Origin: Steroidobacteraceae bacterium
Lineage (GTDB): Bacteria; Pseudomonadota; Gammaproteobacteria; Steroidobacterales; Steroidobacteraceae
NCBI GenBank assembly: GCA_019634895.1
Contig: JAHCAM010000008.1
Coordinates: 4,785 to 68,784 of the forward strand
Length of the DNA: 64,000 nt
Direction: 5' to 3'
The position numbers and the translations under genes are program-made. This document shows, one piece after another, positions 2,174 to 63,067 of this stretch. The notes below the pieces were generated by a model. It searched no databases. It had not been told where the DNA came from and saw nothing but the letters and a program-made list of their open reading frames with translations. Position 1 is the first letter of the stretch, and each line of letters starts with the position of its first letter.

Positions 2174-3456
2174 AGACCCAGCTCGGACGGCGCGCGCGGG
2201 TGGTGATCGTGGACGACGATCCGGGGCTGCTGCGCCTGCTGACGATCCGCCTGCGCTCCGAGGGTTTCGAAGTCGCCGCCTGCGAGAATGCCGCGCAGGC
2301 GCTCTCGTCGGTGCCGCGCTTCCACCCCGACGTGCTGGTCACCGACCTGCGCATGAAGGACAAGGACGGCATCCAGCTGCTCAAGGAGTTGCAGGGCCGC
2401 TACCCCGCCCTGCCGGTCATCCTGCTCACCGCCCACGGCACGATCCCGGACGCAGTCACCGCCACCAAGAGCGGCGCCTTCGCCTTTCTGACCAAGCCGG
2501 TCGAGAAGGACCAACTGCTCGAGCAGATCGAGGCCGCGCTCAAGGTCTCGGGCTTCGCCACCGTCACCGAGGACTGGCGCGCCGGCATCGTCACCCGCAA
2601 CCCGGTCATGGAGGAACGCCTGTCGCAGGCGCTGATGGCGGCGGGATCCGACGCCCCGGTCCTGCTCACCGGCGGCCCCGGCTCGGGCAAGATGCAGCTG
2701 GCGCGCGCCATTCACCAGGCCAGCCCGCGCCGCGGCGCGCGGTTCTCGACGCTCGCCTGCGCGACCGCGACGCTCGAGTCGTTGCAGTCCGCCCTGATCG
2801 GCCGGCGCGAAGCCGACGCGCCGCCGCCGCAGGACGCCCCGCGCGGCACGCTGTTCCTCGACGAAGTCGCCGACCTGCCGCTCGATCTGCAGCTCTCGCT
2901 CAACGGCCTGCTGGATACGGAACCCACGCGCATCATTTCCGGCACCGCGCGGAACCTGCAGGAACTGGTGACCCGCGGCAAGTTCCGCGAGGATCTGTTC
3001 TACCGGCTGAGCGTGACGCGCATTGATCTGCCGCCGCTATCGCAACGCCGGGACGACGTGCCGCTGCTCGCCGCGCATTTCCTTGACGAGTACGGGCGCC
3101 AGGCCGGCCATCGCCACGTGCTCGCGCCGGAGGCGCTCGAACTCCTGATGGTCGGCGACTGGCCCGGCAACGTGCGCCAGCTGCAGACGCTCATCCAGCA
3201 CGCGGCGTCGCTCGCGACCGGGCCGGTGATCAGCGCGGAACTGGTGCAGCGGGCGCTCGGCAGCGGCACCGCGCCGCAGCTTTCGACCTTCGACCAGGCG
3301 CGCGACGAGTTCATGCGCAACTACCTGGTGCAGCTCCTGCAGATCACGCGGGGGAATGTGACGCAGGCCGCAAAGCTGGCGGGGCGCAACCGCACGGATT
3401 TCTACAAACTGTTGAATCGCCACGGCGTGCAGCCGGACGATTTCAAGCATAATTGA
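2170..3456 (+). CDS. NtrC-family response regulator (REC + degenerate AAA+ + Fis HTH), GlrR/QseF-like
   Basis: In-frame ATG at 2170 inside the 624-aa ORF, overlapping the upstream TGA. REC motifs VVIVDDD, LVTDLRM, FLTKP. Walker A GGPGSGK, Walker B LFLDEV. C-terminal LLQITRGNVTQAAKLAGRNRTDFYKLLNRHGV. The GAFTGA loop is absent (see finding). Confidence 0.85.
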   Translation: MKTQLGRRARVVIVDDDPGLLRLLTIRLRSEGFEVAACENAAQALSSVPRFHPDVLVTDLRMKDKDGIQLLKELQGRYPALPVILLTAHGTIPDAVTATKSGAFAFLTKPVEKDQLLEQIEAALKVSGFATVTEDWRAGIVTRNPVMEERLSQALMAAGSDAPVLLTGGPGSGKMQLARAIHQASPRRGARFSTLACATATLESLQSALIGRREADAPPPQDAPRGTLFLDEVADLPLDLQLSLNGLLDTEPTRIISGTARNLQELVTRGKFREDLFYRLSVTRIDLPPLSQRRDDVPLLAAHFLDEYGRQAGHRHVLAPEALELLMVGDWPGNVRQLQTLIQHAASLATGPVISAELVQRALGSGTAPQLSTFDQARDEFMRNYLVQLLQITRGNVTQAAKLAGRNRTDFYKLLNRHGVQPDDFKHN

Positions 3457-3463
3457 ACCACGT

Positions 3464-3910
3464 ATGTCCGCCGAAACCCGCGACAAGGGCACCCTTGCCG
3501 ACCTGACCGCGCACGCTTCCGGCCCCGAAGGGGGCTCGAACCGCGCCTTCGGCATCGTCTTCGCCGTCGTTTTCGCCATCATCGCAGCCTGGCCGCTGAT
3601 GAAGGGCGGGCCTGTGAGGCTCTGGGCGGCCGCCATTGCCGCGATCTTCCTCTTGCTGGCGCTCGCCCTGCCGCGCGTCCTCGCGCCGCTGAATCGCCTG
3701 TGGATGGCGTTCGGCCTGCTGCTGGGGCGCATCGTCAGCCCGATCATGTTGTTCCTGGTTTATGTCATCGCGGTCGTGCCCACCGGCCTGATCATGCGGA
3801 TGTTCGGCAAGGACCCGCTGCATCGGCGCTTCGACCCCGCCGCGACCAGTTACTGGGTGCATCGGGTGCCACCCGGCAAGCCCGATGGCACCATGACCCG
3901 CCAGTTCTGA
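3464..3910 (+). CDS. SxtJ-family small membrane protein
   Basis: 148 aa with two hydrophobic helices (FGIVFAVVFAIIAAWPL, LWAAAIAAIFLLLALAL). It sits just upstream of a DUF5989-like micro-ORF and a carbamoyltransferase, the arrangement I recall for sxtJ-sxtK-sxtI homologues. Confidence 0.55.
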   Translation: MSAETRDKGTLADLTAHASGPEGGSNRAFGIVFAVVFAIIAAWPLMKGGPVRLWAAAIAAIFLLLALALPRVLAPLNRLWMAFGLLLGRIVSPIMLFLVYVIAVVPTGLIMRMFGKDPLHRRFDPAATSYWVHRVPPGKPDGTMTRQF

Positions 3911-3924
3911 GGAGGCCGCGCACA

Positions 3925-4077
3925 ATGATGTCCTTCCTGAAAGAGTTCTGGGCCTTCCTCCGGGTGCGCAAGAAGTTCTGGCTGGCGCCCACGCTGATCG
4001 CCATGGCACTGCTCGGCGCGCTGATCGTGCTGTCGCAGGGATCGGCGGTCGCCCCGTTCATCTACACGCTCTTCTGA
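3925..4077 (+). CDS. DUF5989 / SxtK-like 50-aa membrane peptide
   Basis: ATG at 3925 preceded by GGAGG at 3911-3915. Peptide MMSFLKEFWAFLRVRKKFWLAPTLIAMALLGALIVLSQGSAVAPFIYTLF, a single TM. It ends 1 nt before the carbamoyltransferase start. Confidence 0.6.
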   Translation: MMSFLKEFWAFLRVRKKFWLAPTLIAMALLGALIVLSQGSAVAPFIYTLF

Positions 4078-4078
4078 C

Positions 4079-5917
4079 GTGAAGTACGTCCTCGGCATCT
4101 CCGCGTACTATCACGACAGCGCGGCGGCCCTGCTGCGCGACGGCGAAATCGTCGCGGCCGCGCAGGAAGAGCGCTTCTCGCGCAGGAAGCACGACGCGCG
4201 CTTTCCGCACCACGCGGTTGCGTACTGTCTGGCCGAGGCCGGCATCGGGGCAGCGGATCTCGACCACGTCGCCTTCTACGACAAGCCGTTCCTGAAGTTC
4301 GAGCGCCTGCTCGAGACCTACCTTGCCTTCGCGCCGCGCGGCTTCCGGTCCTTCCGCATCGCCATCCCGGTCTGGCTGCGTGAGAAGCTGTTCCTCAAGG
4401 ACCTGCTGATCCGCGAACTGAAGAAGGTGGATGCCGGCGCGCCGTGGTTCGAGAAGCTGTTGTTCGGCGAGCACCACCTGAGCCACGCCGCGAGCGCGTT
4501 CTATCCCTCGCCGTTCGAGGAAGCGGCTGTGCTCACGCTCGACGGCGTCGGCGAATGGGCAACCAGTTCTCTCGCGATCGGCCGCGGCAACCGGCTCGAG
4601 ATGCAGCGGGAGATCCACTTCCCGCACTCGATCGGGCTGCTCTACTCCGCCTTCACCTACTACACCGGCTTCAAGGTCAACTCCGGGGAGTACAAGGTCA
4701 TGGGGCTCGCGCCCTACGGCGAGCCGAAGTACGCGGACCTGATCCTGGAGCACCTGCTGGATCTCAAGGAGGACGGATCGTTCCGTCTCGACCAGCAGTA
4801 CTTCGACTACTGCACCGGCCTGACAATGACGAATGCGAAGTTCGCCGAGCTGTTCGGCGGCCCGCGCCGCAAGCCCGAGGAGCTGCTGACGCAGAAGCAC
4901 ATGGACCTGGCGGCCTCGGTGCAGAAGGTGACCGAGGAAGTGATGCTGCGCCTGACGCGATCCGTCGCCCGGGAGACCGGACAGCAGAATCTCTGCCTCG
5001 CCGGCGGCGTCGCGCTCAACTGCGTCGCCAACGGCAAGATCCTGCGCGACGGCGCATTCAGGCGGATCTGGATCCAGCCCGCTGCGGGCGACGCCGGCGG
5101 CGCGCTGGGCGCTGCGCTCTCGACCTATTACGGGATGCTCGAGGGCGAGCGAACCCGCAGCAACGGCCACGACCGGATGCGGGGCGCCTATCTCGGGCCG
5201 GCGTTCGCGCAGCACGATATCGAGCAGCGGCTGACCGCGGCCGGAGCGAAGTTCGATCGCCTGAGCGAGGCCGACATGATCGCCCGCGCGGCCCGCGACC
5301 TGGCCGACGGCAAGGCCCTGGGCTGGTTCCAGGGCCGCATGGAGTTCGGGCCGCGCGCGCTCGGCGGCCGCTCGATCCTGGGCGACGCCCGTTCGCCGAC
5401 CATGCAGAAGATGCTGAACCTCAAGGTCAAGTACCGCGAGTCATTCCGCCCTTTCGCGCCGGCGGTGCTGCGCGAAGACGTCGCCGACTGGTTCGAACTC
5501 GACGACGACAGCCCGTACATGCTGCTGGTCGCGGACGTGGTCAGGAACCGCCGCCGTGCGATGACGGAGGCCGAGCAGGCATTGTTCGGCATCGACAAGC
5601 TGAACGTGCCGCGCTCCGACATCCCCGCCGTCACGCACGTGGACTACTCGGCGCGCGTGCAGACCGTTCACGAGGACACGAACCCGCGCTATTACGCGCT
5701 CCTGCGCCAGTTCAAGCAGCTGACAGGTTGCCCGGTGATCGTCAATACGAGCTTCAACGTGCGCGGCGAGCCGATCGTCGGGTCACCGGAGGACGCGTTC
5801 CGCTGCTTCATGGGCACGGAGATCGATGTGCTCACCGTCGGCAACTGCTATCTGGAGAAACTACGGCAGTCTCCTTCGCTAAAGGTTGACTACAAGGACG
5901 CGTTTGAACTGGACTGA
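4079..5917 (+). CDS. Carbamoyltransferase, NodU/CmcH family
   Basis: 612 aa, GTG start. N-terminal MKYVLGISAYYHDSAAALLRDGEIVAAAQEERFSRRKHD; later GGVALNCVANG, FGPRALGGRSILGDARS, VNTSFNVRGEPIV. These are typical of NodU/CmcH O-carbamoyltransferases. Confidence 0.9.
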   Translation: MKYVLGISAYYHDSAAALLRDGEIVAAAQEERFSRRKHDARFPHHAVAYCLAEAGIGAADLDHVAFYDKPFLKFERLLETYLAFAPRGFRSFRIAIPVWLREKLFLKDLLIRELKKVDAGAPWFEKLLFGEHHLSHAASAFYPSPFEEAAVLTLDGVGEWATSSLAIGRGNRLEMQREIHFPHSIGLLYSAFTYYTGFKVNSGEYKVMGLAPYGEPKYADLILEHLLDLKEDGSFRLDQQYFDYCTGLTMTNAKFAELFGGPRRKPEELLTQKHMDLAASVQKVTEEVMLRLTRSVARETGQQNLCLAGGVALNCVANGKILRDGAFRRIWIQPAAGDAGGALGAALSTYYGMLEGERTRSNGHDRMRGAYLGPAFAQHDIEQRLTAAGAKFDRLSEADMIARAARDLADGKALGWFQGRMEFGPRALGGRSILGDARSPTMQKMLNLKVKYRESFRPFAPAVLREDVADWFELDDDSPYMLLVADVVRNRRRAMTEAEQALFGIDKLNVPRSDIPAVTHVDYSARVQTVHEDTNPRYYALLRQFKQLTGCPVIVNTSFNVRGEPIVGSPEDAFRCFMGTEIDVLTVGNCYLEKLRQSPSLKVDYKDAFELD

Positions 5918-5947: not shown

Positions 5948-8881
<2,934 letters not shown>

Positions 8882-8891
8882 GACAATGACC

Positions 8892-10037
8892 TTAAAGCTT
8901 CAAACCACGTGCAATGATGTTACGCTGGATCTCCGATGTCCCGGAGTAGAGCGTGCTGCCGACCGAATCCCGCAGATCGCATTCGACCAGTTGCTCCGTC
9001 ATGTAACCATATCCGCCGAATACCTGGATCGCATCGAGACAGGATTTCACGTAGCACTCGGACACGTGCAGCTTGGCGATCGCTGCCTCCGTCGTCGCAT
9101 CGCGACCCGCATCCTTCAGCTCGCCGATCCGGTACACGAGCGGCCGGCAGGTGTCGAGGCGGACACGCATGTCCACCAGCCGGTTCGCCACCGACTGGAA
9201 TTTCCCGATTGGCTTGCCGAATTGCTTCCGGCTGCGCGCGTGCGCGAGACACTCCTCGAGCTGGCGCTCCATGGCGCCCAGGCAGCTCGCGAGGATGCAA
9301 CCGCGCTCCCATTCCATGGAACACTCAAAGACCGGCACGCCGCGCCCCTCGCGTCCCAGCCGCTGGGATGCCGGCACCCGGCAATCCTCCATGATGAGTT
9401 CCGCCATCGGCGACGTGCGCAGCCCCATCTTCTCCAGCTTGCGGCCCACGCGCAGCCCCGGCGTGCCCTTCTCGATGATGAAGGCCGTAATGCCGGTCGC
9501 GCCCAGGGCGGGATCCACCGTGGCGTAGACGACGAACAGGTCGGCGACCGGCGCATTGGTCACGAACATCTTGGTGCCTGTCAGCACGTAACCGTCGCCA
9601 TCCCGCAGTGCGCGCGTCCGCAGGCTGAAGATATCGGAACCTGCATCAGGCTCCGATGCGCCATTCGCGCCGATCAGACTGCCGTCGCAAAGGGGGCGAA
9701 GGTACTTATCCTTTTGTTGCGCGGTGCCGAACTTCAGGATGGGAATCGAGTTGGTCCACAGGTGGGCGTTCAGCGAGAACAGCAGTCCCTGGTCCCGCGT
9801 GCCGCGGCCGAGACCCTCCATCACCGCCAACAGGTCGGACAGTCCCAGTCCCATGCCGCCGAACTGCGGCGGGATCGGCATGCCGAGCACGCCGAATTCG
9901 GCGCATCGCCGCCATGCGTCACGATCGAACTCGCCGGTGCGCTCGCGCCGTGCCAGGTCCTTGCCCAGCGCCGATCGCGCAAACTGCTCCGCCGCTTCGC
10001 GCAGCCTGGTCCGTTCCTCGCTCAGTTCAAGTTGCAC
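8892..10037 (-). CDS. Acyl-CoA dehydrogenase-family flavoprotein, likely acting on a carrier-protein-bound substrate
   Basis: 381 aa. ASEPDAGSDIFS, FVTNAPVADLF, FIIEKGTPGL, RKQFGKPIGKFQSVANRLVDM, SGTSEIQRNIIARGL. It lies 20 nt downstream of the adenylating enzyme. Confidence 0.85.
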   Translation of the reverse strand: MQLELSEERTRLREAAEQFARSALGKDLARRERTGEFDRDAWRRCAEFGVLGMPIPPQFGGMGLGLSDLLAVMEGLGRGTRDQGLLFSLNAHLWTNSIPILKFGTAQQKDKYLRPLCDGSLIGANGASEPDAGSDIFSLRTRALRDGDGYVLTGTKMFVTNAPVADLFVVYATVDPALGATGITAFIIEKGTPGLRVGRKLEKMGLRTSPMAELIMEDCRVPASQRLGREGRGVPVFECSMEWERGCILASCLGAMERQLEECLAHARSRKQFGKPIGKFQSVANRLVDMRVRLDTCRPLVYRIGELKDAGRDATTEAAIAKLHVSECYVKSCLDAIQVFGGYGYMTEQLVECDLRDSVGSTLYSGTSEIQRNIIARGLKL

Positions 10038-10057
10038 GGGCTCGCTCCGGTTCCGGC

Positions 10058-11548
10058 TCAGGCAATGGCGACGAGACCCTGCAGATCGACCTTGTCCGTG
10101 GACGTCCGCGGCAGGGCTTCAATGACCTTGAACCGGTCCGGGACCATGTAGGGCGGAAGGTTCCGCGACGCATGAGTCTTGAGCGCGATGATGCTCGTCG
10201 CGCGCCCCGGCTGGCAACTCACGAACGCGGTGATGCGGACGCCGGACTCCGGGTCCGGGATGGCGACGGCCGCCGTCTCGCGGATATCGGGATGCCGCGC
10301 GAGCGCCGCCTCGATCTCTCCGAGCTCGACCCGATACCCGCGCCGCTTCACCATGCGGTCGCGGCGTCCGCGATAAGTGAATTCTCCAGGAGGGCCCTCG
10401 GTCACGAGGTCGCCGGTCCGGTACCAACGTCGGCCGTCGCCGCCGGTCAGGAAGGCAGCCGCAGTCAGCTCGGGGCGATTCCAGTAGCCGCGCATGACAT
10501 TCGGCCCGGCGATGAGCAACTCGCCCGTCGCACCGACCGGAACGTCGCCGCCCTGCTCGTCCACTACCCTCGCCGAGTTTGGCGGGCACACGCTGCCGAT
10601 CGGAAAGGAATCGCGCCCCTGCCGGCAATCACCGTCCGGAATCCCGTACCAGGTGCAGACATTCGTTTCCGTCGGCCCATAGAGGTTGTAGTAACGCGGG
10701 TGCGGCCACCGTTCGCGCAGCGCCCGGAACCGCGGCATGGGAAAAACCTCGCCTGCAAACAGGACGGCCCGCAACGCGCCGCAGTCGTGGCGCTCGAGCC
10801 TGCCGTATTCGCACAGCAGATTGAGGATCGATGGCGTCGAGTACCAGTGCGTGATCCGCTCCCCCGCGATCGTCGCCGCAAGCCGCTGCGGATCCTTGCC
10901 GAGGTCCTCGCCGATGAGAACCAGCGTCGCGCCGTGCCGGGCCGGCAAGAACACGTCGAGTATCGAAAGATCGAAATGCAGCGGCGCATGCGAGGAGAAC
11001 ACGTCTTCGCACGTCGGACGAAAGGTCGCGGAACACCAGTCCAGGAAGCTCAGTGCGTTGCCATGCGTGAGGACGACGCCCTTGGGCCTGCCGGTGGATC
11101 CGGACGTGTAGAGAACATAGGCGACGTCGTCCACATTGCAGCTGGTCGTAGCGGTCGCCGGCGCGTCCGGCAGTTCCCGCAGGTCCAGGAGCCGCGGGGA
11201 AACGGACTGCTTTGCCAGTTCCTCCGACAGCGCCTGCCGAGCGCCGGGCTCTGCGATGACGGCCTTGACCTGGCAGTCGCCCAGGATGAACGCGCCGCGC
11301 GCCACCGGGGAATCCGCATCCACGGGAACGTAGGCCGCGCCTGCCTTCAGGATGCCGAATATCGCGGCGACGGCGTCCGGCGACTTGTGCAGCCGCAGAC
11401 CCACGCGATCCCCACGCCCGACGCCGATCTGCCGCAGGCAATTGCGTATCCGGTCCGATCGCGCAGTCAGTTCGGTATGCGTCACCACCGCACCATCGCA
11501 GCGCACCGTGAACGTCGCGCTTTCCGCCAGCAGGTCGCCCAGGCTCAT
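10058..11548 (-). CDS. Stand-alone NRPS-type adenylation enzyme (DltA-like amino acid--carrier protein ligase)
   Basis: Start taken at internal ATG 11548 (MSLGDLL...), which forms an ATGA overlap with the carrier-protein stop. Core motifs YVLYTSGSTGRPKG, FDLSILDVF, NLYGPTETN, GELLIAGPNVMRGY, YRTGDL, GRRDRMVKRRGYRVELGEIE, LPPYMVP, TSTDKVD. Confidence 0.85.
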   Translation of the reverse strand: MSLGDLLAESATFTVRCDGAVVTHTELTARSDRIRNCLRQIGVGRGDRVGLRLHKSPDAVAAIFGILKAGAAYVPVDADSPVARGAFILGDCQVKAVIAEPGARQALSEELAKQSVSPRLLDLRELPDAPATATTSCNVDDVAYVLYTSGSTGRPKGVVLTHGNALSFLDWCSATFRPTCEDVFSSHAPLHFDLSILDVFLPARHGATLVLIGEDLGKDPQRLAATIAGERITHWYSTPSILNLLCEYGRLERHDCGALRAVLFAGEVFPMPRFRALRERWPHPRYYNLYGPTETNVCTWYGIPDGDCRQGRDSFPIGSVCPPNSARVVDEQGGDVPVGATGELLIAGPNVMRGYWNRPELTAAAFLTGGDGRRWYRTGDLVTEGPPGEFTYRGRRDRMVKRRGYRVELGEIEAALARHPDIRETAAVAIPDPESGVRITAFVSCQPGRATSIIALKTHASRNLPPYMVPDRFKVIEALPRTSTDKVDLQGLVAIA

Positions 11549-11790
11549 AACTTCGATTGCACCAGCCGTTGCAGCGCCGCAATGCTCGAAAGGTTTGCAG
11601 GCTCGAGGTCCGCCGCGGCGAACTCGATCGCGAACTGCTCCTCTAGATACGTGACCAGCTTGAGCGTGGACATCGAATCCAGGATCCCGCTCTCCTTCAG
11701 CTCCGTATCGTCGGTCAGGTTCGACGGGTCCTCTCCCGGGAGCAGGTTCTCGAGGATGTACGCCCTGAGCACGGATCTGATGTCGTTCAT
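11545..11790 (-). CDS. Acyl/peptidyl carrier protein (DltC-like)
   Basis: 81 aa from internal ATG 11790 (ATGA overlap with the MBOAT gene stop). Phosphopantetheine site in SGILDSMSTLKLV. Confidence 0.8.
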   Translation of the reverse strand: MNDIRSVLRAYILENLLPGEDPSNLTDDTELKESGILDSMSTLKLVTYLEEQFAIEFAAADLEPANLSSIAALQRLVQSKL

Positions 11791-14315
11791 TCTGCTGCAA
11801 ACTCCTTGTCTATGAAGGCCGCCAGGCCTGGATAGAGCCTGTCGGCAATGAGGCGATGGCCCTCGGCGTTCGGGTGGTCGTCCCACGACGCGACACGAAG
11901 CGCTGCGCGGCGTTCCTCCGGGTAGATTCCCAGCAAGTTCACGACCGGCAGGCCGGCCGCGCGCAAGGCTTCCTGGTTCGGCAGTTCGCGGGTCTCACGC
12001 TCCACGACTGCATCCAGCGCGACGACCAACGGCTTGACCCCGCGTTCGCGCGCGACCCTGGCAAACCGGGCGATCGCCGCATCCGATACCTCGTCCACGA
12101 TCCCGTGGATGCGTCCTTCGATCTCTGCACCCGGCATGCGCACGTTCACCCCGACCCAACGGGCAGCCCTGCGCCAGGGCTCGAACGGCACCGGCAGGCC
12201 ATCCCGGCCGACGTCTTCGATTCCGGCGGACCGGACCAGTTGCAGGACTTCTTCATGCGGAATCCCGACGCCGCGCCAGATGGTCTTGTAGAGGAAGACA
12301 CGGGACATTGCCCGGTTCGCATGATACGTCGTCATGATAACGACGTCGGGCGCGAAATCGAAGACACGCTCCTCGAGCATCCGGACCTGCTGCGTCAGGC
12401 AGTAGCCGTCAACGCCGAAGTTGAGGACCTCGTAGCGGCCGATACCCGGCAGCGCATGCTCGCGGTTCAGCCGGTCCTCCACCAGCGCCTCGAAGGTCTC
12501 GCCGTCGCCGACGCCGTTGCCCATGACGTGCGAAGGGCCCAGCAGCGCAATGCGCAGCGTCCCTGGTGCCTTTTCGAGTTCGTAGTCGCGGTCCCGCATG
12601 CCCCAGCGATTGGTGGAGAACGCGTTGCCATTCCAGACGACGCTGCGCGCCGGCAGCAGGTCACGCTCCAGGAAGTCATCGCGCAGCCGCAGTACGCCGG
12701 TGCTCGGCAGGTCCTGCCACTCGTCACGCCTCGCACCCGGCTGGTCCAGGTCCTGCGTGGCGAGACGCGCCCGCACGTCGAGCTGCTCGTAGTAGCCGCG
12801 ATGCTGAAGTTCCGCGTCGCGCACGTTCAGCCCGGTCGTGTGCAGCGCCGCCACCTTGTCCGCGACCGGCGCAGGCAACAGCCCAACGACGCTTGGAATC
12901 GCCAGGACGAGCAGAGCGGCCAACGGCAGCACGGTGCGCAGCACTGGCCTCGCCGAGGAAAGCGCGTCCCTGCTGCGGCCGCCCAGCCAGGTCAGCAGCA
13001 CGATCGCTGCGCCGATCAGCAGCGCACCCTTCGCATCCACGTTGATGGCCGCACCGAGCGTCCAGATCCACTGGCCTACCGATTCCGCGCTCCAAAGCGA
13101 CCACAGGAAGCAGAACAGCAGGAATGTGCCGCTCGTTCGGAGTCCCTCCGTGAGGCTCCATCGCGCGGCGCCTCGCAGCCGCTTCGGGCCTGGCCGAAGC
13201 TCGCGGATGGCGCCGACAATCACCAGCCCGCCGAGCAGTCCCCAGAACAGGATGTCCTGTGGAGTGACCGGAAATCCTCCGCGCAGCCAGAACCACTGGT
13301 ACGAGTGCAGCGCCCAGGTGGTCGCGAACACGGCCGCCGTCGCGATGCCGATCGCCATGGCCGGCCTCAGCTTCTTGACCCGGAAGTACACCGGATAGAA
13401 TACGAAGGACATCATGAAGTCCTTCCAGTAGATGTTGATGCGCCGCCACAGCTCGGTGAAGTTCCGCGACAGGTAGTAGAGCTTGTGCGTTTCAGGCAGC
13501 CGGAATCCGAAGAGGTGCAGCATGCCCACGATGAGGTGGAACATGCCCGACACCCGCAGGTACAACAGGAAAGTGCCCAGCATCCATTGCGCGAGGTCGC
13601 CTAGCGCCTCGACGTCCGCCGCATCGTTGACCACGCGCTGGTAGACCAGGCGGTAGAGCAGCAAGTGCACGATGCCCCGCGCGATCCAGAGCAGCCCCTG
13701 CTGGTAGATGACGGCGGAATCCTTGTCGAAGTGCGACCGCCGGAAAGTCTGGTAATCGATAACCGGAAACAGCGGGAACACCAGGTTGGGAAACATGAAG
13801 AAGTAGCCCAGCGCCGCCCAGATCCGCCCCTGCCGCGGTTCGGTTGCCAGCGACTTCGCGTAGATCGCGAGCCGGAACATGAACATCGAGCCCAGGATCG
13901 GCCAGACCACTGACGACCAGGGCGCGGCGATGGCACCTGCTCGCGAGGCGGCAAGCAGGCCTCCGATGGCGAGCAGCAGGGCGACTCGCGCCCACAGCGG
14001 CAGCGGAAGGTGGCAAGTGCCAATGAGCACCACGCCACAGGCGATGAGCCACGCGCCGTCCGCGGGACTGAACACCAGGAACACCGCGGCCAGCGACAGC
14101 AAGGCGAAGAATGGCAGCCTCCACGCGGCCCGCAGGAACATGGATACCGCGAAGCCTGCGGCCGCCAGCATGAAGAGCCGCAAGAATGCGGGTCCCTCGA
14201 TGCCATAGGCATGAACCACCAGCCCTGCGAGCAGCAACTGCGCCGCCAACGCGGCAATCGTTACAGCGGAAGGGCGCTCGGCGCCAATTTCTGGCGCTTC
14301 TGATTGTCCGGACAT
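11787..14315 (-). CDS. MBOAT-family membrane acyltransferase (AlgI/DltB-like) fused to a C-terminal SGNH/DltD-like extracytoplasmic domain
   Basis: 842 aa. About 11 hydrophobic segments in aa 1-480. MBOAT signature NFTELWRRINIYWKDFMMSFVFYPV and downstream TTWALHSYQW. After a last TM (LPLAALLVLAIPSVVGLL) comes a soluble domain with LRIALLGPSHVMGNG, FGVDGY and WDDHPNAEGHRLIA (SGNH block I/II/V-like). Confidence 0.8.
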   Translation of the reverse strand: MSGQSEAPEIGAERPSAVTIAALAAQLLLAGLVVHAYGIEGPAFLRLFMLAAAGFAVSMFLRAAWRLPFFALLSLAAVFLVFSPADGAWLIACGVVLIGTCHLPLPLWARVALLLAIGGLLAASRAGAIAAPWSSVVWPILGSMFMFRLAIYAKSLATEPRQGRIWAALGYFFMFPNLVFPLFPVIDYQTFRRSHFDKDSAVIYQQGLLWIARGIVHLLLYRLVYQRVVNDAADVEALGDLAQWMLGTFLLYLRVSGMFHLIVGMLHLFGFRLPETHKLYYLSRNFTELWRRINIYWKDFMMSFVFYPVYFRVKKLRPAMAIGIATAAVFATTWALHSYQWFWLRGGFPVTPQDILFWGLLGGLVIVGAIRELRPGPKRLRGAARWSLTEGLRTSGTFLLFCFLWSLWSAESVGQWIWTLGAAINVDAKGALLIGAAIVLLTWLGGRSRDALSSARPVLRTVLPLAALLVLAIPSVVGLLPAPVADKVAALHTTGLNVRDAELQHRGYYEQLDVRARLATQDLDQPGARRDEWQDLPSTGVLRLRDDFLERDLLPARSVVWNGNAFSTNRWGMRDRDYELEKAPGTLRIALLGPSHVMGNGVGDGETFEALVEDRLNREHALPGIGRYEVLNFGVDGYCLTQQVRMLEERVFDFAPDVVIMTTYHANRAMSRVFLYKTIWRGVGIPHEEVLQLVRSAGIEDVGRDGLPVPFEPWRRAARWVGVNVRMPGAEIEGRIHGIVDEVSDAAIARFARVARERGVKPLVVALDAVVERETRELPNQEALRAAGLPVVNLLGIYPEERRAALRVASWDDHPNAEGHRLIADRLYPGLAAFIDKEFAAE

Positions 14316-14763
14316 TGTGCTCAGCTACGGCCAGTTTCCGTCGAAATGCTTCTCATTCTAGCTTTGCACCGCTGGACTCTGCCTGAAATCCCGCACGCAG
14401 CCATCTTCCGGACGGAGGTGAGCCGCTTATGGCAAGTGAGCGAGCGCGGGGTGGAAGCGCATCGCAAATATTCTTCTCAAATCTGCTGATGACAAGCTAC
14501 CGCACACGTGTATGCGCCCGAACCCATTCTTGTCGATCGAACATTCCAGGCGCAAGATCGGCGCGTGGCAATATCGACTATAGTCTGCGGCACCTGCGCA
14601 ACAATCACGAACAGCAGTCCGGCCGGACGACTTACTTGTCACTCAAGCGAAAACGATGAGGCCCGGAAAGTCTTGCTCTGAACATGCCTGGGATGGGACC
14701 TGGGATTCGGCGGGGACAGTCACTCGCTGGTTTAAGGTGGCGGAACTTCAAGTGGAGCTATGA
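14316..14763. promoter_or_regulatory. Divergent intergenic control region between TU2 and TU3
   Basis: 448 bp non-coding gap, the longest in the window, and clearly lower in GC. It is flanked by divergent start codons at 14315 (-) and 14764 (+). Promoter elements were not resolved. Confidence 0.4.
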
Positions 14764-16071
14764 ATGCCGATGTCCAGGTGGGGCGTAACTTGCCAAACAA
14801 TTCTGCTGCGTCTCGCACTCGGCATCTTGTTCGGCACGATCCTGTTGCTGTACGCACCCCAGTCGACGCTGGGGTTGGCGATTGTGGCAATTATGGCCGC
14901 TCTGGTTGCGATTCTCAGGCCATCGAACGCTGCACTACTCACGACGTCGCTCCTGGTCATAACACTCATGCTGGAAGGTCTGTTTCGATTCCTAGCCAAC
15001 GACGTGGTGACACCGTACTACCGACCCCATGAAGTGCTGGCACTTGACACGCGCTACAAGCCGTCGGAACTCCTTGTGATGCACGTGCCACATGGTGATT
15101 TGCTCGCCATCGACCCATCACTCTCAAGGGATCTGGCCGTACCACGAACCGAGATCTTTCGTACAGACTCTCTGGGATTTCGCAACGATTACGACTACTC
15201 GGGACAAAAGCTCCTGATCGTTGGCGATTCGTTTGTGGCCGGCAATGGAAACTCTCAAGAACACACCATCACAGCCCGATTGCTCACCCAGTTTGGAGTT
15301 TACAGCTATAACCTGGGATTTCAGGCCGGTCCATTCGGGTACTCCGAACGTATCAGCTGGCTTCGCGAGCACTTCCCCCGCGACGCTTGTGTTGTTCTTT
15401 TAATGTTTGAAGGGAATGATTTTCAGTCAATCACTTCGCTTGGCGCCGCCGCCTATACCGACGTGCCTCGCGGCTTGCGAGAAACAGCAAAGAAGTACGT
15501 GCGATTCGTGCGTGAGCCATTTGTCCTTCCGCGAGTTGTGTATGGGCTCGTAACCCGGGCGCAGGCCGTGATCAAGAGCCGTGTTTCAGAACGTGTGCCC
15601 AATCATCAGCGCAACGCCGCGGACAAGGAATCGCGCGTGACCCTGTTGGGGACGGTGCGGGGACGGCCGATTGCCTTTCTCGCCGGGTATGCCGAGGTGG
15701 TCTACAGGACTCAGTATGATGATTTCGGGTTTCTTCATCAGAACCTTGCACGCGCCCGCCCCGACACTATCTTCTTCGTGCCGGACAAGTTCCGTGTGTA
15801 CGGTCCGCTGCTCGATGACCCCGTAGATGGGGCATTTCCCGATGCTCAATGGGCTCATCTCAAGCGTGCGGCAGATGATCTCGGTATTCCCGCCTTCAAT
15901 CTGACAGAACGCTTGCTGTCGCGATCCGCGAAGCTCGCGGACTCGGGGGATCTGACGTTCTGGCCGGATGACACGCATTGGAATGTCCACGGTATGGACG
16001 TCGCGGCAGAAGCGATCATCGCCGATCTAGCAGACGCTGGCGTCGATCATTGTGTTGTTGCGGTACATTAG
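14764..16071 (+). CDS. Membrane-anchored SGNH/AlgJ-AlgX-like acyltransferase/esterase
   Basis: 435 aa. N-terminal TM helices. LLIVGDSFVAGNG (block I) and FWPDDTHWNVHG (the D..HW motif typical of AlgJ/AlgX-type O-acetyltransferases). Confidence 0.65.
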   Translation: MPMSRWGVTCQTILLRLALGILFGTILLLYAPQSTLGLAIVAIMAALVAILRPSNAALLTTSLLVITLMLEGLFRFLANDVVTPYYRPHEVLALDTRYKPSELLVMHVPHGDLLAIDPSLSRDLAVPRTEIFRTDSLGFRNDYDYSGQKLLIVGDSFVAGNGNSQEHTITARLLTQFGVYSYNLGFQAGPFGYSERISWLREHFPRDACVVLLMFEGNDFQSITSLGAAAYTDVPRGLRETAKKYVRFVREPFVLPRVVYGLVTRAQAVIKSRVSERVPNHQRNAADKESRVTLLGTVRGRPIAFLAGYAEVVYRTQYDDFGFLHQNLARARPDTIFFVPDKFRVYGPLLDDPVDGAFPDAQWAHLKRAADDLGIPAFNLTERLLSRSAKLADSGDLTFWPDDTHWNVHGMDVAAEAIIADLADAGVDHCVVAVH

Positions 16072-16289
16072 GAGCATGGGGAGTTCTCACTTGCGCCGTG
16101 AGTGCAGCAGCAGGGATCGAGCGATGGCCGCGTTACCGCCGCTCCCAAGGCTGCCCGCGCCGCACGCACAAGGCGCCGACTTATACGAAGCCAATGACTT
16201 TAGTGCAACAGCGCAGGACGAGTCCGCGCAGTTGAAGGTCGTCCGGCCAACGGCTGCCCCGGGCAACTGGCCTTGAGTCCACTCGAACA

Positions 16290-17357
16290 GTGAGCTTTAA
16301 CCAGTTCAATTGGCGCAAAAGTTCCCGAGCGAAGCGCCCAGCTCGCCCTGGCATGCCCGACAGCAAGACGTCCGTTGGCCCGCGCGTTTTTACTGACCTG
16401 CAAGTTTCTCAGTCCGAGTGGTGGGCCACGCGTATCTCTGTGTTCCGTGCACGGCACGGTCGCGGACTGCTCATTCAGCTTGGAAACGTCTTATCGCTGC
16501 TTTGTGCCGCTGCGAAGCACGATGTGGTCATCACCTCAAGTGTTCGGAATGCCCTGCTCCTGGGCCTGACCAAGTCGCTTGGGCTTGTCCGTCGACCGCG
16601 AATCGTGACGGTAGAGACCAGACTGGATGAGCCTGCACCTGGACTCCGTTGGAGGCTGAAAGTTTGCCTGCAGCGGATTGCCTTCAGGCATGTTGACGTC
16701 GTCTGCGTATCAGCGCGCGACGAAATCAAAGCATATTCCGACCGCCTCAGATTGCCGGTTGGACGGTTTCGCTTTGTGCCGTGGCACACCAACGTGCTCG
16801 AACCCGCTCGCTACAGCGCACCGGACGGATACATATTCAGCGCAGGCCGTACTGGCAGGGACTGGAGCACCTTCACGGAAGCCGTGAAGGGACTCGCGTG
16901 CCCCATAGCGGTCGTTTGCGATGCCGATACGCGCATCCGCGAGACCTTTCCCAAGCATGCGACAGTTGAGAGCGAGATTCCGTATGCTCGATACCGGCAG
17001 TTGTTGATCGGCGCGCGTATCGTCGTCATACCGCTTGAGGAGCGAGTCTACTCTTCAGGGCAGGTCGTCATCCTGGAAGCCATGGCCCTCGGCAAGCCCG
17101 TCATCGCAACGCGAGCAGTCGGCTCGGCAGACTACATCAACGATGGCATCACCGGCTTGCTGGTACCGCCAAATGACGCTCCGTCACTGCGCGCTGCCAT
17201 CGTCAGACTGCTCGAAGACGACGCCCTGGCCGATCGACTGTCGCGGAATGCCCTCGAGACCGTGCTCGAAAGCCATACCCTCGACAGGTATCTTCATACA
17301 ATCGAAGGCATTGCGAAACGACTTGCATTGAAACAGCGCGCGCCGGTTGAAGACTGA
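16290..17357 (+). CDS. Glycosyltransferase family 4
   Basis: 355 aa from GTG 16290; an in-frame ATG at 16353 is an alternative start. C-terminal SSGQVVILEAMALGKPVIATRAVGSADYINDGITGLLVPP. Confidence 0.75.
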   Translation: MSFNQFNWRKSSRAKRPARPGMPDSKTSVGPRVFTDLQVSQSEWWATRISVFRARHGRGLLIQLGNVLSLLCAAAKHDVVITSSVRNALLLGLTKSLGLVRRPRIVTVETRLDEPAPGLRWRLKVCLQRIAFRHVDVVCVSARDEIKAYSDRLRLPVGRFRFVPWHTNVLEPARYSAPDGYIFSAGRTGRDWSTFTEAVKGLACPIAVVCDADTRIRETFPKHATVESEIPYARYRQLLIGARIVVIPLEERVYSSGQVVILEAMALGKPVIATRAVGSADYINDGITGLLVPPNDAPSLRAAIVRLLEDDALADRLSRNALETVLESHTLDRYLHTIEGIAKRLALKQRAPVED

Positions 17358-17387
17358 TACCTGCTCAAAGCCATTGCGGAGTGCCTG

Positions 17388-18284
17388 ATGTCGCCAGCAA
17401 CTTCCAGGAAAGGAATCATTCTAGCCGGTGGCACGGGCACGCGGCTTCATCCTGTCACGCTCGCGTTGAGCAAGCAGTTGGTACCGGTCTACGACAAGCC
17501 CATGGTGTATTACCCGCTCTCCACGCTCATGCTGGCCGGCATCCGTGAGTTTCTCATCATCACCACGCCACGTGACCAGACCGCTTTTGAGGGTCTGCTG
17601 GGTGATGGCAGCCAGTGGAACATATCGATCAGCTACGCGGTGCAACCGGAGCCAAACGGCATTGCGCAGGCGTTCCTCATTGGTGCGAACTTCATTGGCA
17701 ATAGTGCAGTTTCGCTGATACTGGGAGACAACATCTTCTACGGGCACAACCTGAGCCGGACATTGCAGCGCTGCGCGAAGAGACAGGCCGGTGCCACGGT
17801 ATTTGGCTATTACGTCCAGGATCCGGAACGATATGGCGTCGCGCAGTTCGACTCCAAGGGCCGACTGGTCGACCTGGTCGAAAAGCCGGAGCGCGCGCCG
17901 TCCAATTACGCGATTACGGGCATCTACTTTTACGACCGGAACGTCGTCAATATGGCGCGGCAGTTGAGCCCGTCCGCTCGCGGCGAGCTCGAAATCACAG
18001 ATCTCAATCGGGCATACCTGCGCAAAGGAAACCTCAAGCTCGAGAAGCTGGGTCGCGGCACCGCCTGGCTGGATACCGGCACGCCTGCTTCGCTGACGGA
18101 CGCCGGCAATTTCGTGCGTATTGTGGAAGAAAGACAGGGTCTCAAGATTGCCTGTGTGGAGGAAGTGGCGTTCCGTATGGGGTATATCAATCGCGAGCGG
18201 TTGCGACGCCTCGCAGCGCCGCTTCGCAAGAGTGGCTACGGCGAGTATTTGCTTGGCCTGCTGAAGGACAGGCGGCCACCGTGA
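17388..18284 (+). CDS. rfbA: Glucose-1-phosphate thymidylyltransferase
   Basis: 298 aa. [54 protein letters not shown] is the canonical RmlA. Confidence 0.95.
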
Positions 18285-18829
18285 GGTTCACACCGCAGGC
18301 AATCGCAGATGTCGTCCTTGTCGAGCCCACGGTGCTGTGGGACGCACGCGGCTGCTTTCAGGAAGTCTGGCGATCCGACCGGTTCGCAGAGGCTGGCATC
18401 GACGCAACTTTTGTTCAGGACAATCACAGCAGATCCGTCTGCGGCACGCTTCGCGGTCTTCACTATCAGCTGGAGAAGCCGCAGGGCAAGCTGGTCCGCG
18501 TGGTCAGCGGCGAGATCTATGACGTTGCCGTCGATCTGCGCCGAAACTCTCCCACATTCGGCAGGTGGGTCGGCACCACGCTCTCAGCTGAAAACTTCTG
18601 CCAGCTCTGGGTACCACCAGGGTTTGCACATGGGTTCTATGTTACGAGCGCATCTGCCGACGTCAGTTACAAGTGCACTGCCTTTTACCATGCTCCTTCA
18701 GAGCGCTGCCTGTTGTGGAATGATCCAGAACTTGCGATCACTTGGCCGATGACTGCCGGTCGCCCTCCTCTCATTTCTGCAAAAGACCAGGCCGGCACGC
18801 GCCTTCGGATTGCAGAGACGTTTCAGTGA
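18281..18829 (+). CDS. rfbC: dTDP-4-dehydrorhamnose 3,5-epimerase
   Basis: 182 aa. [56 protein letters not shown]. Confidence 0.92.
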
Positions 18830-19695
18830 GGGTGCTATTGACCGGCGCCAGTGGTCAGCTTGGATGGGAACTTCAACGTACGGTCCCGGACAGCGTCGAA
18901 CTTTTCGCCAAGAGCCATGCTGAACTTGACATCTGCGATGAGCAGTCAGTAGCTCGGGCATTCCGGTTGCACAGCCCCGAACTGGTGGTAAATACCGCTG
19001 CATTCACAGACGTCGACCGGGCGGAGCATTCTCGCGACCTGGCCTTTGCAATCAACGCTGAAGGTCCGCGTCTGATTGCCCGCCAGGCCGCTGATGCCGG
19101 CGGCCGCATGATCCAGGTCTCGACTGACTACGTGTTCGCCGGTGACGGCAATACTCCCATTCTGCCGACAGCACGTACGGCGCCGAACTCCGCTTATGGC
19201 CGTAGTAAGCTGGCAGGGGAGAAGCATGTGCTGCAGTTGCTCGGAACGCAATGTGCCGTTGTCCGCACTGCATGGCTGTACTCGAGACACGGCCGCAATT
19301 TCGTCAAGACAATGCTCGGTCTGATGAGATCCCGAACGAACTTGGGCGTAGTTTCAGACCAGCTTGGCTCGCCAACCTGGGCGAGGGAGCTTGCCCGATC
19401 GATATGGGCATTCGCTGCACGAGCCGACCTGCACGGCGTCTACCATTGGACCGACGACGGCGTGGCGAGCTGGTACGACTTCGCAGTTGCCATCCGCGAC
19501 AACGGTCTCGAACGGGGACTACTCAAGCGCCGGGTCGTCATTGACCCTATTCCAGCGGCAGCATACCCGACCGCTGCCCGGCGGCCTCGTTACAGCGTTC
19601 TGGACAAGCGCTCGACGATTGACGTACTCGGAGTGTCTCCGAATCATTGGCAGACCAATCTCTCACACATGTTGGACGACCTCGCAAATGCGTAG
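18826..19695 (+). CDS. rfbD: dTDP-4-dehydrorhamnose reductase
   Basis: Start set at in-frame GTG 18826 (GTGA overlap with the rfbC stop), giving [16 protein letters not shown]. Also NTAAFTDVDRAE, STDYVFAG, YGRSKLAGE. Confidence 0.88.
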   Translation: MRVLLTGASGQLGWELQRTVPDSVELFAKSHAELDICDEQSVARAFRLHSPELVVNTAAFTDVDRAEHSRDLAFAINAEGPRLIARQAADAGGRMIQVSTDYVFAGDGNTPILPTARTAPNSAYGRSKLAGEKHVLQLLGTQCAVVRTAWLYSRHGRNFVKTMLGLMRSRTNLGVVSDQLGSPTWARELARSIWAFAARADLHGVYHWTDDGVASWYDFAVAIRDNGLERGLLKRRVVIDPIPAAAYPTAARRPRYSVLDKRSTIDVLGVSPNHWQTNLSHMLDDLANA

Positions 19696-20791
19696 TCTGT
19701 TGATCACCGGCGGCGCAGGATTCATTGGTGCCAATTTTGTGCATTACTGGCGAGCACGGTACCCCGATGATCGCCTCGTTGTCCTCGACGCCCTCACCTA
19801 TGCCGGCAACCGCGCAAACCTGGCAACCCTCGAGGGCTCACCAGGATTCCATTTTGTTCGAGGCAACATCTGCGAGCAGTCGCTTGATGAGTCTCTGCTG
19901 CGGGAGCATGCCGTCGACACGGTCGTACACTTCGCGGCCGAATCGCACGTGGATCGCTCGATCGTTGGTCCGGGCGCCTTCATTTCGACGAATATCCTTG
20001 GTACGCACGCGCTGCTGGAAGCCTGCAGGTCCGTCTGGACCACCGATGCGCTGGCCGCTCAGCACCGGTTTCATCACATCTCCACGGACGAGGTTTACGG
20101 ATCTTTGGCGCAGGATGATCCCGCCTTCACCGAGTCAACACCGTATGCCCCGAACTCGCCTTACGCTGCCAGCAAGGCAGCGTCAGACCACCTCGTGCGC
20201 GCCTATTGCCACACCTATGGACTGGACACAACGATAACAAACTGTTCGAACAACTATGGCCCGTACCAGTTTCCAGAGAAGCTTATCCCGTTGATGATCG
20301 TCAATGTCTTGCTCGGAAAGCCGCTGCCGGTCTACGGCGACGGCGGCAATGTCCGTGATTGGATCCACGTGCGGGATCACTGCCATGCGATCGAGCGCGT
20401 ACTGCAGGCTGGAAGAAAAGGTTCCACCTACAATGTTGGCGGCGACTGCGAACTCGATAACCTTTCGCTCGTACGAATGATATGCGAGATCATGGACCGG
20501 GAACTCGACATGAATGCAGGACTATGCAAGAGATTTCCTGCCGCGCGGGGCGGCAAGCGCGCCCGTTCCGCTGATCTCATCAAGTTTGTCAAAGACCGAC
20601 CGGGACACGATCGGCGCTACGCCATCAATGGTCGCCTGATTCGCGAGGAGCTTGGTTTCGTGCCAACGACAAGTCTCGAGAAAGGATTGGCGGAGACAAT
20701 CACCTGGTATCTCTCAAACGAGCAATGGTGGCGCGCGGTCATGACGGGCACCTATCGCAACTGGATTGCCACGAACTATTCCAACCGCTGA
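19688..20791 (+). CDS. rfbB: dTDP-glucose 4,6-dehydratase
   Basis: Start at in-frame ATG 19688 (MRSLLITGGAGFIGANFV). Also HFAAESHVDRS, HISTDEVYG, PYAASKAASDH, CSNNYGPYQFPEKLIP. Confidence 0.92.
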   Translation: MRSLLITGGAGFIGANFVHYWRARYPDDRLVVLDALTYAGNRANLATLEGSPGFHFVRGNICEQSLDESLLREHAVDTVVHFAAESHVDRSIVGPGAFISTNILGTHALLEACRSVWTTDALAAQHRFHHISTDEVYGSLAQDDPAFTESTPYAPNSPYAASKAASDHLVRAYCHTYGLDTTITNCSNNYGPYQFPEKLIPLMIVNVLLGKPLPVYGDGGNVRDWIHVRDHCHAIERVLQAGRKGSTYNVGGDCELDNLSLVRMICEIMDRELDMNAGLCKRFPAARGGKRARSADLIKFVKDRPGHDRRYAINGRLIREELGFVPTTSLEKGLAETITWYLSNEQWWRAVMTGTYRNWIATNYSNR

Positions 20792-20943
20792 ACACGCTGC
20801 TGGCGAACTTCTCCTTCTGCGCGCCAGTGCACGTCCTCATCCTGATTCAGCTTCATGCCGATACATTTCGCATTCTCGCTTGGCCCTATTACACTCTGCC
20901 CAGGCTGCGGCAGGCTTCGAACCGCAGCGGAGATCCAATTATT

Positions 20944-26536: not shown

Positions 26537-26537
26537 C

Positions 26538-49741: not shown

Positions 49742-49759
49742 GCGTCGTGCCGGCGCGGC

Positions 49760-61698: not shown

Positions 61699-63067
<1,369 letters not shown>

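Follow-up and report, generated by a model that had tools for sequence, protein, structure and literature searches.

This report concerns a run of four adjacent genes in a stretch of 64,000 nucleotides, referred to below as the window, from a Steroidobacteraceae bacterium (GenBank assembly GCA_019634895.1, contig JAHCAM010000008.1, positions 4,785 to 68,784 of the forward strand); all positions given are those of the window. The genes lie on the minus strand at 8892-14315, where the original prediction, made from the letters alone, had placed them, and together they probably make up a self-contained acyl-transfer cassette. The first (open reading frame 11787-14315) encodes an 842-amino-acid (aa) protein composed of a membrane domain with a predicted MBOAT fold (aa 1-490, 12846-14315; assigned by hhalign to PatA, Foldseek and invariant residues), the motif R-G-Y-Y-E-Q-L directly after the last transmembrane helix (aa 506-512, 12780-12800; found by conservation) and an SGNH domain predicted to be periplasmic (aa 540-842, 11790-12698; assigned by Foldseek, a sub-threshold Lipase_GDSL_2 match and a conserved triad). 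It is followed by genes for a putative 81-aa type II peptidyl carrier protein (PCP; 11545-11790, PP-binding) with its phosphopantetheine site at Ser39 (11674-11676), for a 496-aa stand-alone adenylation enzyme of the PltF/PigI type, predicted to be specific for L-proline (10058-11548; TIGR01733 and pocket code), and for a 381-aa flavoprotein assigned to the FAD-dependent prolyl-carrier-protein dehydrogenases of the AnaB/PigA/RedW family (8892-10037; NCBIfam and PDB matches). Overlaps of 4 nt (ATGA) join the MBOAT-like gene to the carrier gene and the carrier gene to the adenylase gene, while gaps of 20 nt and 10 nt precede the dehydrogenase gene and rmd, respectively. In this genome rmd (7958-8881), gmd (6991-7968) and a gene for a GT4 glycosyltransferase (5948-6994), all on the minus strand, are read with the cassette, the overlaps further along the run being 11 nt for rmd/gmd and 4 nt for gmd and the glycosyltransferase gene.

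The adenylation enzyme matched AMP-binding of Pfam with 293 bits and the amino-acid adenylation domain model TIGR01733 with 388 bits, over its cut-off, and over its full length its best stand-alone structural relative in PDB was PltF, the L-proline-[prolyl-carrier] ligase (311 bits). When the A4-to-A5 segment alone was used as the query for a pocket search, PltF (6o6e) ranked first with 91 bits, followed by PigI (7thn) with 65 bits, and every DltA scored lower, at 50-57 bits. The nine pocket residues (D, L, L, Y, L, A, L, V, C) equal those of PltF at nine of nine aligned positions and give, together with the A10 lysine, the code DLLYLALVCK; relative to DltA (3dhv) about five of the nine differ. 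The region of A4, earlier described as DltA-like, is in fact PltF-like by pocket alignment, and the comparison of specificity codes with DltA and PltF/PigI, which the original prediction had proposed, ended in identity with PltF. In an alignment of adenylases from related loci the code DLLY[L/F/N/H]ALVCK was kept in 55 of them, and four further ones carried one change, at the third code position (DLF or DLR). The two DltA models gave 287 and 279 bits against cut-offs of 476 and 560. As judged from its code and scores, the enzyme is proline-specific; a fatty-acyl-AMP ligase identity was dropped on the same two grounds.

The carrier scored 32 bits with PP-binding of Pfam, over the cut-off, with Ser39 lying within LDSM, in agreement with the phosphopantetheine serine proposed earlier for this 81-aa protein. 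Its PDB matches were a PCP (2my5, 39 bits), PltL (32.8 bits), PigG (24 bits) and DltC (22-23 bits), and the DltC equivalogs reached 30.9 and 24.5 bits against cut-offs of 68 and 52; by these similarities it is a type II PCP, nearer PltL than DltC. A match to ACP_for_OlsHI (83 bits, cut-off 130) was considered as an ornithine-lipid lead and rejected, the GH3-like enzyme and the alpha/beta hydrolase being absent here. The flavoprotein matched all three Acyl-CoA_dh domains of Pfam. Among NCBIfam models it scored 458 bits with PigA and 414 bits with RedW, the next family following at 298, although the equivalog cut-offs of 500 and 650 were not reached; among PDB sequences AnaB (4irn) gave 427 bits, a prolyl-PCP dehydrogenase (5zw0) 349 bits and the best housekeeping acyl-CoA dehydrogenase (ACAD) 309 bits. 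The prolyl-carrier-protein dehydrogenases are thus clearly its nearest family by bit score, AnaB, PigA and RedW standing well over housekeeping ACADs. PigA, RedW and PltE catalyze a four-electron oxidation to the pyrrole-2-carboxyl-S-carrier, and AnaB a two-electron oxidation to a pyrroline-carboxyl thioester. Pocket code, dehydrogenase scores and carrier scores agree with the proline-to-pyrrolyl type of triad (adenylase, carrier and ACAD) that had been suggested for these genes. The original prediction treated the ACAD-like enzyme as an extra layer on a Dlt-like machine; these matches point to a proline-to-pyrrolyl, or AnaB-type dehydroprolyl, triad, in which that enzyme would belong to the core of the system.

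The exact 842-aa protein is listed by NCBI as hypothetical. Searched against PDB sequences as a single sequence or as a 99-sequence profile, it gave no MBOAT match, and nothing beyond a marginal GDSL match; because Pfam likewise gave no MBOAT match, the assignment was made by fold comparison and hhalign. An AlphaFold2 (AF2) model built with 99 homologues had a pLDDT of 86.9 and a pTM of 0.82. In a Foldseek search of PDB its membrane part matched HHAT and DltB with a probability of 1.00, the TM-scores being 0.53-0.63 for DltB 6bug_C and 8jem_A (0.63 for 8jem_A, on target) and 0.54 for HHAT, and residues ~540-842 matched the SGNH esterases CgnD, EstL5, CEX and TesA. Lipase_GDSL_2 of Pfam, matched by 20 of 22 family members, scored 23 bits on the SGNH domain, under the gathering score of 32.9. 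A tblastn search of the central segment against plasmid records returned one true family member and 39 weak matches, nearly all annotated as MBOAT/AlgI; from one of the weak matches Neisseria gonorrhoeae PatA was recovered, ending FIYANF, as published, and the hhalign comparison of the family profile with this PatA gave 91% probability (E 1e-6, 191 columns). Many homologues are labeled COG1696 DltB by JGI. On the strength of model and profile comparison we take the protein to combine an N-terminal MBOAT fold with a C-terminal SGNH fold. Of the earlier description as an MBOAT fused to an SGNH/DltD-like domain, both folds are supported by AF2/Foldseek and the first also by the PatA alignment, while a Pfam MBOAT match and a likeness specific to DltD have not been found.

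Conservation was followed in 99 close members of the family and in 77 distant representatives at 35-48% identity. Only 22 residues are invariant in the latter, including His260, Asn294, His337, Tyr508, Tyr509, Ser595 and His814. The hhalign comparison pairs WDKWH of PatA with WRRIN, and IWHGYGW with LHSYQWF. A His/Asn swap, with the PETH His277 standing for the canonical His, was tried as a candidate and weakened, as His277 varies in the wider family and His260 and His337 do not. Two helices (428-445 and 457-478), analogous to the extra pair of PatA, precede RGYYEQL with its invariant Tyr-Tyr. In PatA and DltX an acyl-Tyr shuttle hands the acyl group on to the SGNH Ser (PMC12148441), and by analogy Tyr508/Tyr509 are a candidate acyl-Tyr shuttle. 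Low AF2 pLDDT at residues 512-527 suggests a flexible linker. In the SGNH triad Ser595 (12531-12533) and His814 (11874-11876) are invariant, and no fewer than 90% of members have Asp812. The basic character of the loop that precedes the last helix would, by the positive-inside rule, place the SGNH domain in the periplasm.

The family of the 842-aa protein counts more than 3200 members in 90% clusters and 909 clusters at 50% identity (E <= 1e-30). It is present in 384 of the species genomes scanned, from Acidobacteriota, Gemmatimonadota, Verrucomicrobiota, Pseudomonadota, Chloroflexota, Rhodothermales, Planctomycetota, Myxococcota and other groups. Genes for the carrier, adenylase and dehydrogenase were all found within 10 kb of the fusion gene in 54 of 80 related loci (denoted below by L numbers), and in 31 of the 37 loci whose flanks measure 6 kb or more on each side. 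In the 54 full loci the four genes share one strand, occur in at least nine gene orders and span more than 10 phyla. Apart from these genes, no gene family was common to more than 12 of the 80 loci in a clustering of shared families whose length limit left out the small carrier gene. Linkage kept with shuffled order and with few other shared genes is the pattern of a single functional module, and the survey of genomes proposed earlier thus found the four-gene block staying together across phyla. In L085 (Verrucomicrobiales), L002, L026 and L048 the fusion and carrier genes are adjacent, with no adenylase or dehydrogenase gene within 10 kb and with housekeeping flanks. As a separate observation, L088 has a family member of 56% identity (10001-12601) inside an exosortase (EpsH/EpsI) locus devoid of the proline adenylase, carrier and dehydrogenase, with an exosortase-type AMP-binding gene near the fusion gene, an arrangement suggesting that other carrier systems, too, can be partners of the fusion protein.

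The likeness of the cassette to the Dlt system (DltA/C/B/X/D) is one of general logic: a stand-alone adenylase feeds a carrier, the carrier an MBOAT-fold membrane protein, and this an outer SGNH domain. It is on this four-part logic, and on the 279-287 bits obtained with the DltA models, that one could base a true Dlt-type aminoacylation, in which an unoxidized amino acid, D-alanine or similar, is placed on a surface polymer and the flavoprotein is an unrelated metabolic neighbor. We find this hardly credible, as the DltA scores are far under their cut-offs, the pocket equals that of PltF, the carrier is not DltC, the membrane domain is devoid of the His required by DltB, and the flavoprotein belongs with prolyl-carrier dehydrogenases and is linked to the other three genes in nearly all adequately flanked loci. 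A genuine Dlt system was accordingly rejected on pocket code and family scores, and is contradicted also by the conserved dehydrogenase. The predicted substrate of the cassette is L-proline and not D-alanine, with an additional oxidation on the carrier; MBOAT and SGNH are parts of one polypeptide, with the catalytic His changed to Asn; the internal RGYYEQL stands instead of the DltX microprotein and FXYXXF; and the hosts belong to diderm phyla, whereas Dlt is found in Gram-positive bacteria. No open reading frame for a DltX-like microprotein with a C-terminal FXYXXF was found in or beside the cassette, the sole one ending F.Y..F (DUF5989) being part of a carbamoyltransferase module. The statement that the first three genes supply every Dlt function therefore holds as an analogy only.

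The window as a whole is, by its family scores, an XrtA/PEP-CTERM exopolysaccharide (EPS) locus, since exosortase A (XrtA) with an EpsI domain (60190-61977, minus strand; TIGR03109, 220.6 bits, cut-off 208), PrsT (494 bits), the XrtA chain-length determinant (462 bits), the XrtA deacetylase (386 bits) and PrsK (322 bits, cut-off 300) all scored over their NCBIfam cut-offs. The XrtA-associated Tyr kinase, with 220 bits, stayed just under its cut-off of 231. Wzy, a flippase-like gene, several GT4 genes, AsnB-type amidotransferases, rmlA, candidate dTDP-sugar genes and a UXS-like gene are also present. The same locus is kept in the two nearest relatives, L083 and L082, the fusion proteins of which are 81% and 76% identical to the one here; kinase, sigma-54 regulator, SxtJ, DUF5989, carbamoyltransferase, cassette, GT4 and epimerase genes are common to them, and the 76% relative, for which a longer flank is stored, keeps AsnB and a CapK-like gene as well.

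The rmd and gmd genes were correctly recognized in the original prediction (Rmd 6x3b, 272 bits; gmd TIGR01472, 406 bits, cut-off 415), which further considered the cassette hard-wired to a D-rhamnose operon. Here the comparison speaks otherwise: rmd, gmd and the glycosyltransferase gene are absent at this position in L082 and L083, where the interval between dehydrogenase and carbamoyltransferase genes holds nothing in one and an AlgX-like gene in the other, a close rmd or gmd was found in 0 of the 80 other loci, and the GC content of the trio is 0.57-0.59, about 8 points lower than that of the cassette and its neighbors (0.65-0.67). From its absence in relatives and its lower GC the trio looks like an insertion, and the D-rhamnose link like a local event in a variable sugar region. 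Two low-GC blocks can be seen around the cassette, 5948-8881 and ~14400-20800 (0.56-0.59, about 8 points below their neighbors at 0.65-0.69), the second with an AlgX-like gene, GT4, rmlA and further candidate dTDP-sugar genes; both are missing from the otherwise syntenic L082 and L083 and look like swapped-in sugar cassettes.

Two stand-alone AlgX/SGNH-like membrane proteins are encoded on the plus strand. The first, a membrane-anchored protein of 435 aa, is divergent from the cassette (14764-16071; Pfam ALGX 27.4 bits, just over the cut-off), and similar AlgX-like genes flank the cassette in L082 and L086. Its similarity to the fused SGNH domain is marginal (E = 0.16), and it is a possible second transferase, analogous to AlgX. 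The second (34015-35337; Lipase_GDSL_2 34.9 bits, ALGX 29.2 bits) belongs to a protein family (cluster 8) present in seven related loci. Across the loci in general, polysaccharide-type genes lie within 10 kb of the cassette in about one third, and EPS-type contexts include L087, with PEP-CTERM, AsnB and CapK genes, and the exosortase locus L088. In L086 (1-5122) the cassette is accompanied by three sulfotransferase-family genes, an arylsulfotransferase gene, two AlgX-like SGNH genes and the carbamoyltransferase module, a gene mix pointing to a heavily decorated polymer.

In the pathway which we propose from these data, the adenylase would activate L-proline and load it on the phosphopantetheine arm at Ser39 of the carrier. 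The flavoprotein would then oxidize the prolyl-S-carrier, by four electrons to a pyrrole-2-carboxyl or by two to a pyrroline-carboxyl thioester, and the acyl-S-carrier would dock at the cytoplasmic face of the MBOAT-like domain. This domain would carry the acyl group across to the outside, where Tyr508/Tyr509 would be its most likely recipient, a step proposed on the precedent of the PatA and DltX tyrosines; from there the group would pass to Ser595 of the fused SGNH domain, predicted to be periplasmic, and this domain would esterify a hydroxyl of an acceptor outside the cytoplasm. For this genome the XrtA/PEP-CTERM exopolysaccharide is the likeliest acceptor, and the transfer may be completed by the stand-alone AlgX-like proteins, as it is by AlgJ and AlgX in alginate acetylation. 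This reading of the cassette as one for export of a proline-derived acyl group is, in our judgment, rather probable when taken as a whole; for everything downstream of the dehydrogenase, that is the direction of transfer, the acyl-Tyr step and the acceptor, as well as for the oxidation state of the acyl group, we infer from the gene content and from the precedents named. Esterification of a glycan is plausible, and is supported by the EPS locus itself, by the retention of the cassette in the EPS locus of close relatives, by the third or so of loci with polysaccharide genes and by the absence of a ketosynthase (KS), condensation (C) domain or thioesterase (TE) partner.

The same mechanism could also serve another envelope acceptor, such as lipopolysaccharide (LPS) or O-antigen, peptidoglycan, periplasmic glucans or exosortase-processed PEP-CTERM proteins. 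The cassette often lies away from EPS genes, it is co-transcribed here with rmd, gmd and a glycosyltransferase gene, which are O-antigen genes in Pseudomonas and Xanthomonas, and among the substrates of the XrtA system are proteins for which the final attachment is not known. In the nearest relatives, however, the cassette stays in the XrtA EPS locus although the sugar genes have been exchanged, and neither LPS-core nor peptidoglycan genes recur beside it, so that such an acceptor appears to us quite unlikely.

A different possibility is that the triad makes a (halo)pyrrolyl-S-carrier for a small-molecule pathway, the MBOAT-like/SGNH protein off-loading it by hydrolysis, with export of free pyrrole-2-carboxylate, or esterifying a membrane lipid or small alcohol. 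Every characterized use of the triad is in secondary metabolism (pyoluteorin, prodiginines, aminocoumarins, anatoxin), and the cassette shares with these systems (PltF/PltL/PltE, PigI/PigG/PigA, RedM/RedO/RedW, CloN4/N5/N3, Bmp4/Bmp1/Bmp3 and the variant AnaC/AnaD/AnaB) a proline adenylase with the same pocket code, a type II PCP, a probable prolyl-carrier dehydrogenase of the ACAD family and, in some related loci, carrier-substrate halogenases. One or two genes for flavin halogenases of the latter type adjoin the cassette in 11 of the 80 loci, mostly of Gemmatimonadota and Chloroflexota (L040, L041 at 1262-4562, L055, L064, L065, L066, L073, L078 and L079 among them); they match Trp_halogenase of Pfam and CndH, CmlS, Mpy16 and PltA of PDB, and fit an aromatic pyrrole in those lineages. 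Many loci, e.g. that of Steroidobacter flavus, have no nearby glycan genes, the SGNH domain resembles esterases/thioesterases such as TesA, and an MBOAT domain devoid of its His may not be a classical transferase. On the other hand, the known triads have ketosynthases, soluble acyltransferases and thioesterases as the downstream partners that build small molecules, whereas across the 80 loci the cassette has no recurrent partner of the thioesterase, condensation or ketosynthase kind, and its only conserved partner is the membrane MBOAT-like/SGNH fusion, often in polysaccharide loci. The informative contexts are those of EPS (XrtA, GT4, AsnB, Wzy, carbamoyl- and sulfotransferases), stand-alone AlgX-like partners adjoin the cassette, and the combination of an MBOAT fold of 11 or more helices and an SGNH domain in the periplasm is known as the design by which extracytoplasmic polymers are acylated (PMC12148441). 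We consider a small-molecule role unlikely, though deserving of attention.

Several observations weigh against export of a proline-derived acyl group to a surface glycan. No match to Pfam MBOAT or MBOAT_2 was obtained with the 842-aa protein and 22 relatives at E values up to 10. The position of the MBOAT catalytic His is taken by Asn294 (13434-13436), invariant in the 99 close and 77 distant members, so that classical MBOAT chemistry cannot be assumed; this His has been called 'universally conserved in all MBOAT proteins' and was shown to be essential (PMC12148441). Neither the protein nor its family has the acyl-shuttle motif FXYXXF at the C-terminus. The top 50 Foldseek matches of the SGNH domain include neither DltD nor PatB nor AlgX; its fold resembles generic esterases, and the domain could for this reason be a hydrolase. 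The dehydrogenase is marginally nearer AnaB (427 bits), a two-electron enzyme. About two thirds of the loci, such as those of S. flavus and of Verrucomicrobiales, have no glycan genes within 10 kb. We know of no pyrrole-2-carboxyl substituent of a glycan, and none was found in the literature; finally, the evidence is computational throughout.

Next to the GT4 gene, on the plus strand, lies a carbamoylation module consisting of an SxtJ-like gene (3464-3910), a gene for a DUF5989 microprotein (3925-4077) and a NodU/CmcH-type carbamoyltransferase gene (4079-5917); a carbamoyltransferase gene is near the cassette in 7-9 of the 80 loci. The DUF5989 (SxtK-like) microprotein is 50 aa long; its N-terminus is basic, it has a single transmembrane helix and its last six residues are FIYTLF. 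Its C-terminus, PFIYT(L/I)F, is the FXYXXF acyl-shuttle motif of DltX, PatA and AlgI, and the architecture is DltX-like. Only 8 of 15,444 open reading frames in related loci end F.Y..F, and all eight encode this microprotein; it occurs in L004 (8608-8766), L017, L048, L052, L064, L082 (18606-18758), L083 (10656-10808) and L086 (7991-8143). It may mark a transmembrane carbamoyl-Tyr shuttle, or else it may serve the His-less MBOAT-like protein where both co-occur; a literature search for a link of SxtK or DUF5989 to DltX found none.

Some further features of the window should be mentioned. An AsnB-type amidotransferase and a CapK/PaaK-like adenylate-forming enzyme are encoded as a pair on the minus strand (24692-27938), the latter having 466 aa and no Pfam match here, with CapK_C matched in relatives; in 6-10 loci such a pair adjoins the cassette. 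A protein of 674 aa (29224-31248, plus strand), in which a GFO_IDH_MocA oxidoreductase is fused with an NAD-dependent epimerase, has counterparts adjoining the cassette in at least six related loci, including L087 and L088. Within the XrtA core a second adenylate-forming ligase, associated with exosortase A (48227-50017, minus strand; TIGR03098, 386 bits, cut-off 592), has an 85-aa carrier of its own. The window proteins that were scanned included no further membrane acyltransferase, so that the 842-aa protein might serve both carriers. A scan for sigma-54 promoters, sought as a link to the sigma-54 regulator, gave 33 matches where 28 were expected, none of them in the intergenic region 14316-14763.

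Among the MBOAT/SGNH pathways Dlt is the one that uses a carrier protein and the others do without; fused membrane-SGNH enzymes are of the AT3 type, MBOAT and SGNH being separate proteins (PMC12148441). With PatA/PatB, AlgI/AlgJ/AlgF/AlgX and WssH/WssI the cassette shares a predicted MBOAT-fold protein, one or more SGNH transferases placed in the periplasm, a pair of additional C-terminal helices leading to a periplasmic Tyr-bearing segment, and stand-alone AlgX-like proteins in the locus, but those systems use acetyl-CoA, keep the universal His, end FXYXXF and have MBOAT and SGNH as separate proteins. The fusions OatA and OafA likewise combine a membrane acyl-translocating domain and an extracytoplasmic SGNH domain in one polypeptide, with an acyl-Tyr in a loop; in their case, however, the membrane domain has the AT3 fold, the donor is acetyl-CoA and no carrier protein takes part. 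As far as can be seen from its sequence, the cassette differs from known MBOAT/SGNH acylation in being carrier-fed, in its MBOAT-SGNH fusion, in having neither the canonical His nor FXYXXF, and in its pyrrole-forming triad. No description of it was found in the literature under the specificity code, MBOAT with prolyl/pyrrole, DltB with pyrrole, PEP-CTERM with ACP/ACAD or pyrrole-2-carboxyl with polysaccharide, and it looks like an apparently widespread pathway that has not been described before.

In its broadest form the proposal is that hundreds of environmental diderm bacteria carry pyrrole-2-carboxyl esters, some of them halogenated, or reactive pyrroline-carboxyl esters on a surface polymer, here the XrtA/PEP-CTERM exopolysaccharide, attached by a second carrier-fed route, independent of Dlt, which relies on a His-less fused MBOAT-SGNH protein with an internal Tyr-Tyr shuttle; in this form it is tentative, and our doubts somewhat exceed our confidence. 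Should it hold, the substituents of glycans or envelopes would be joined by a new chemical class, an acyl group that is aromatic, derived from proline and possibly halogenated, and the carrier-protein-dependent acyl export otherwise known from Dlt only would have a second case. Pyrrolyl-S-carrier intermediates would gain a new exit route beyond the biosynthesis of small molecules, and the 'universal' MBOAT histidine would turn out to be dispensable, with consequences for the mechanism assumed throughout the superfamily, human enzymes included. A function would also be given to a family of about 900 clusters, carried by NCBI as 'hypothetical protein' and with no Pfam model of its membrane domain. 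This family is common in phyla and groups of soil and wastewater (Acidobacteriota, Gemmatimonadota, Steroidobacteraceae and Accumulibacter), in which exopolysaccharides drive the formation of aggregates and flocs.

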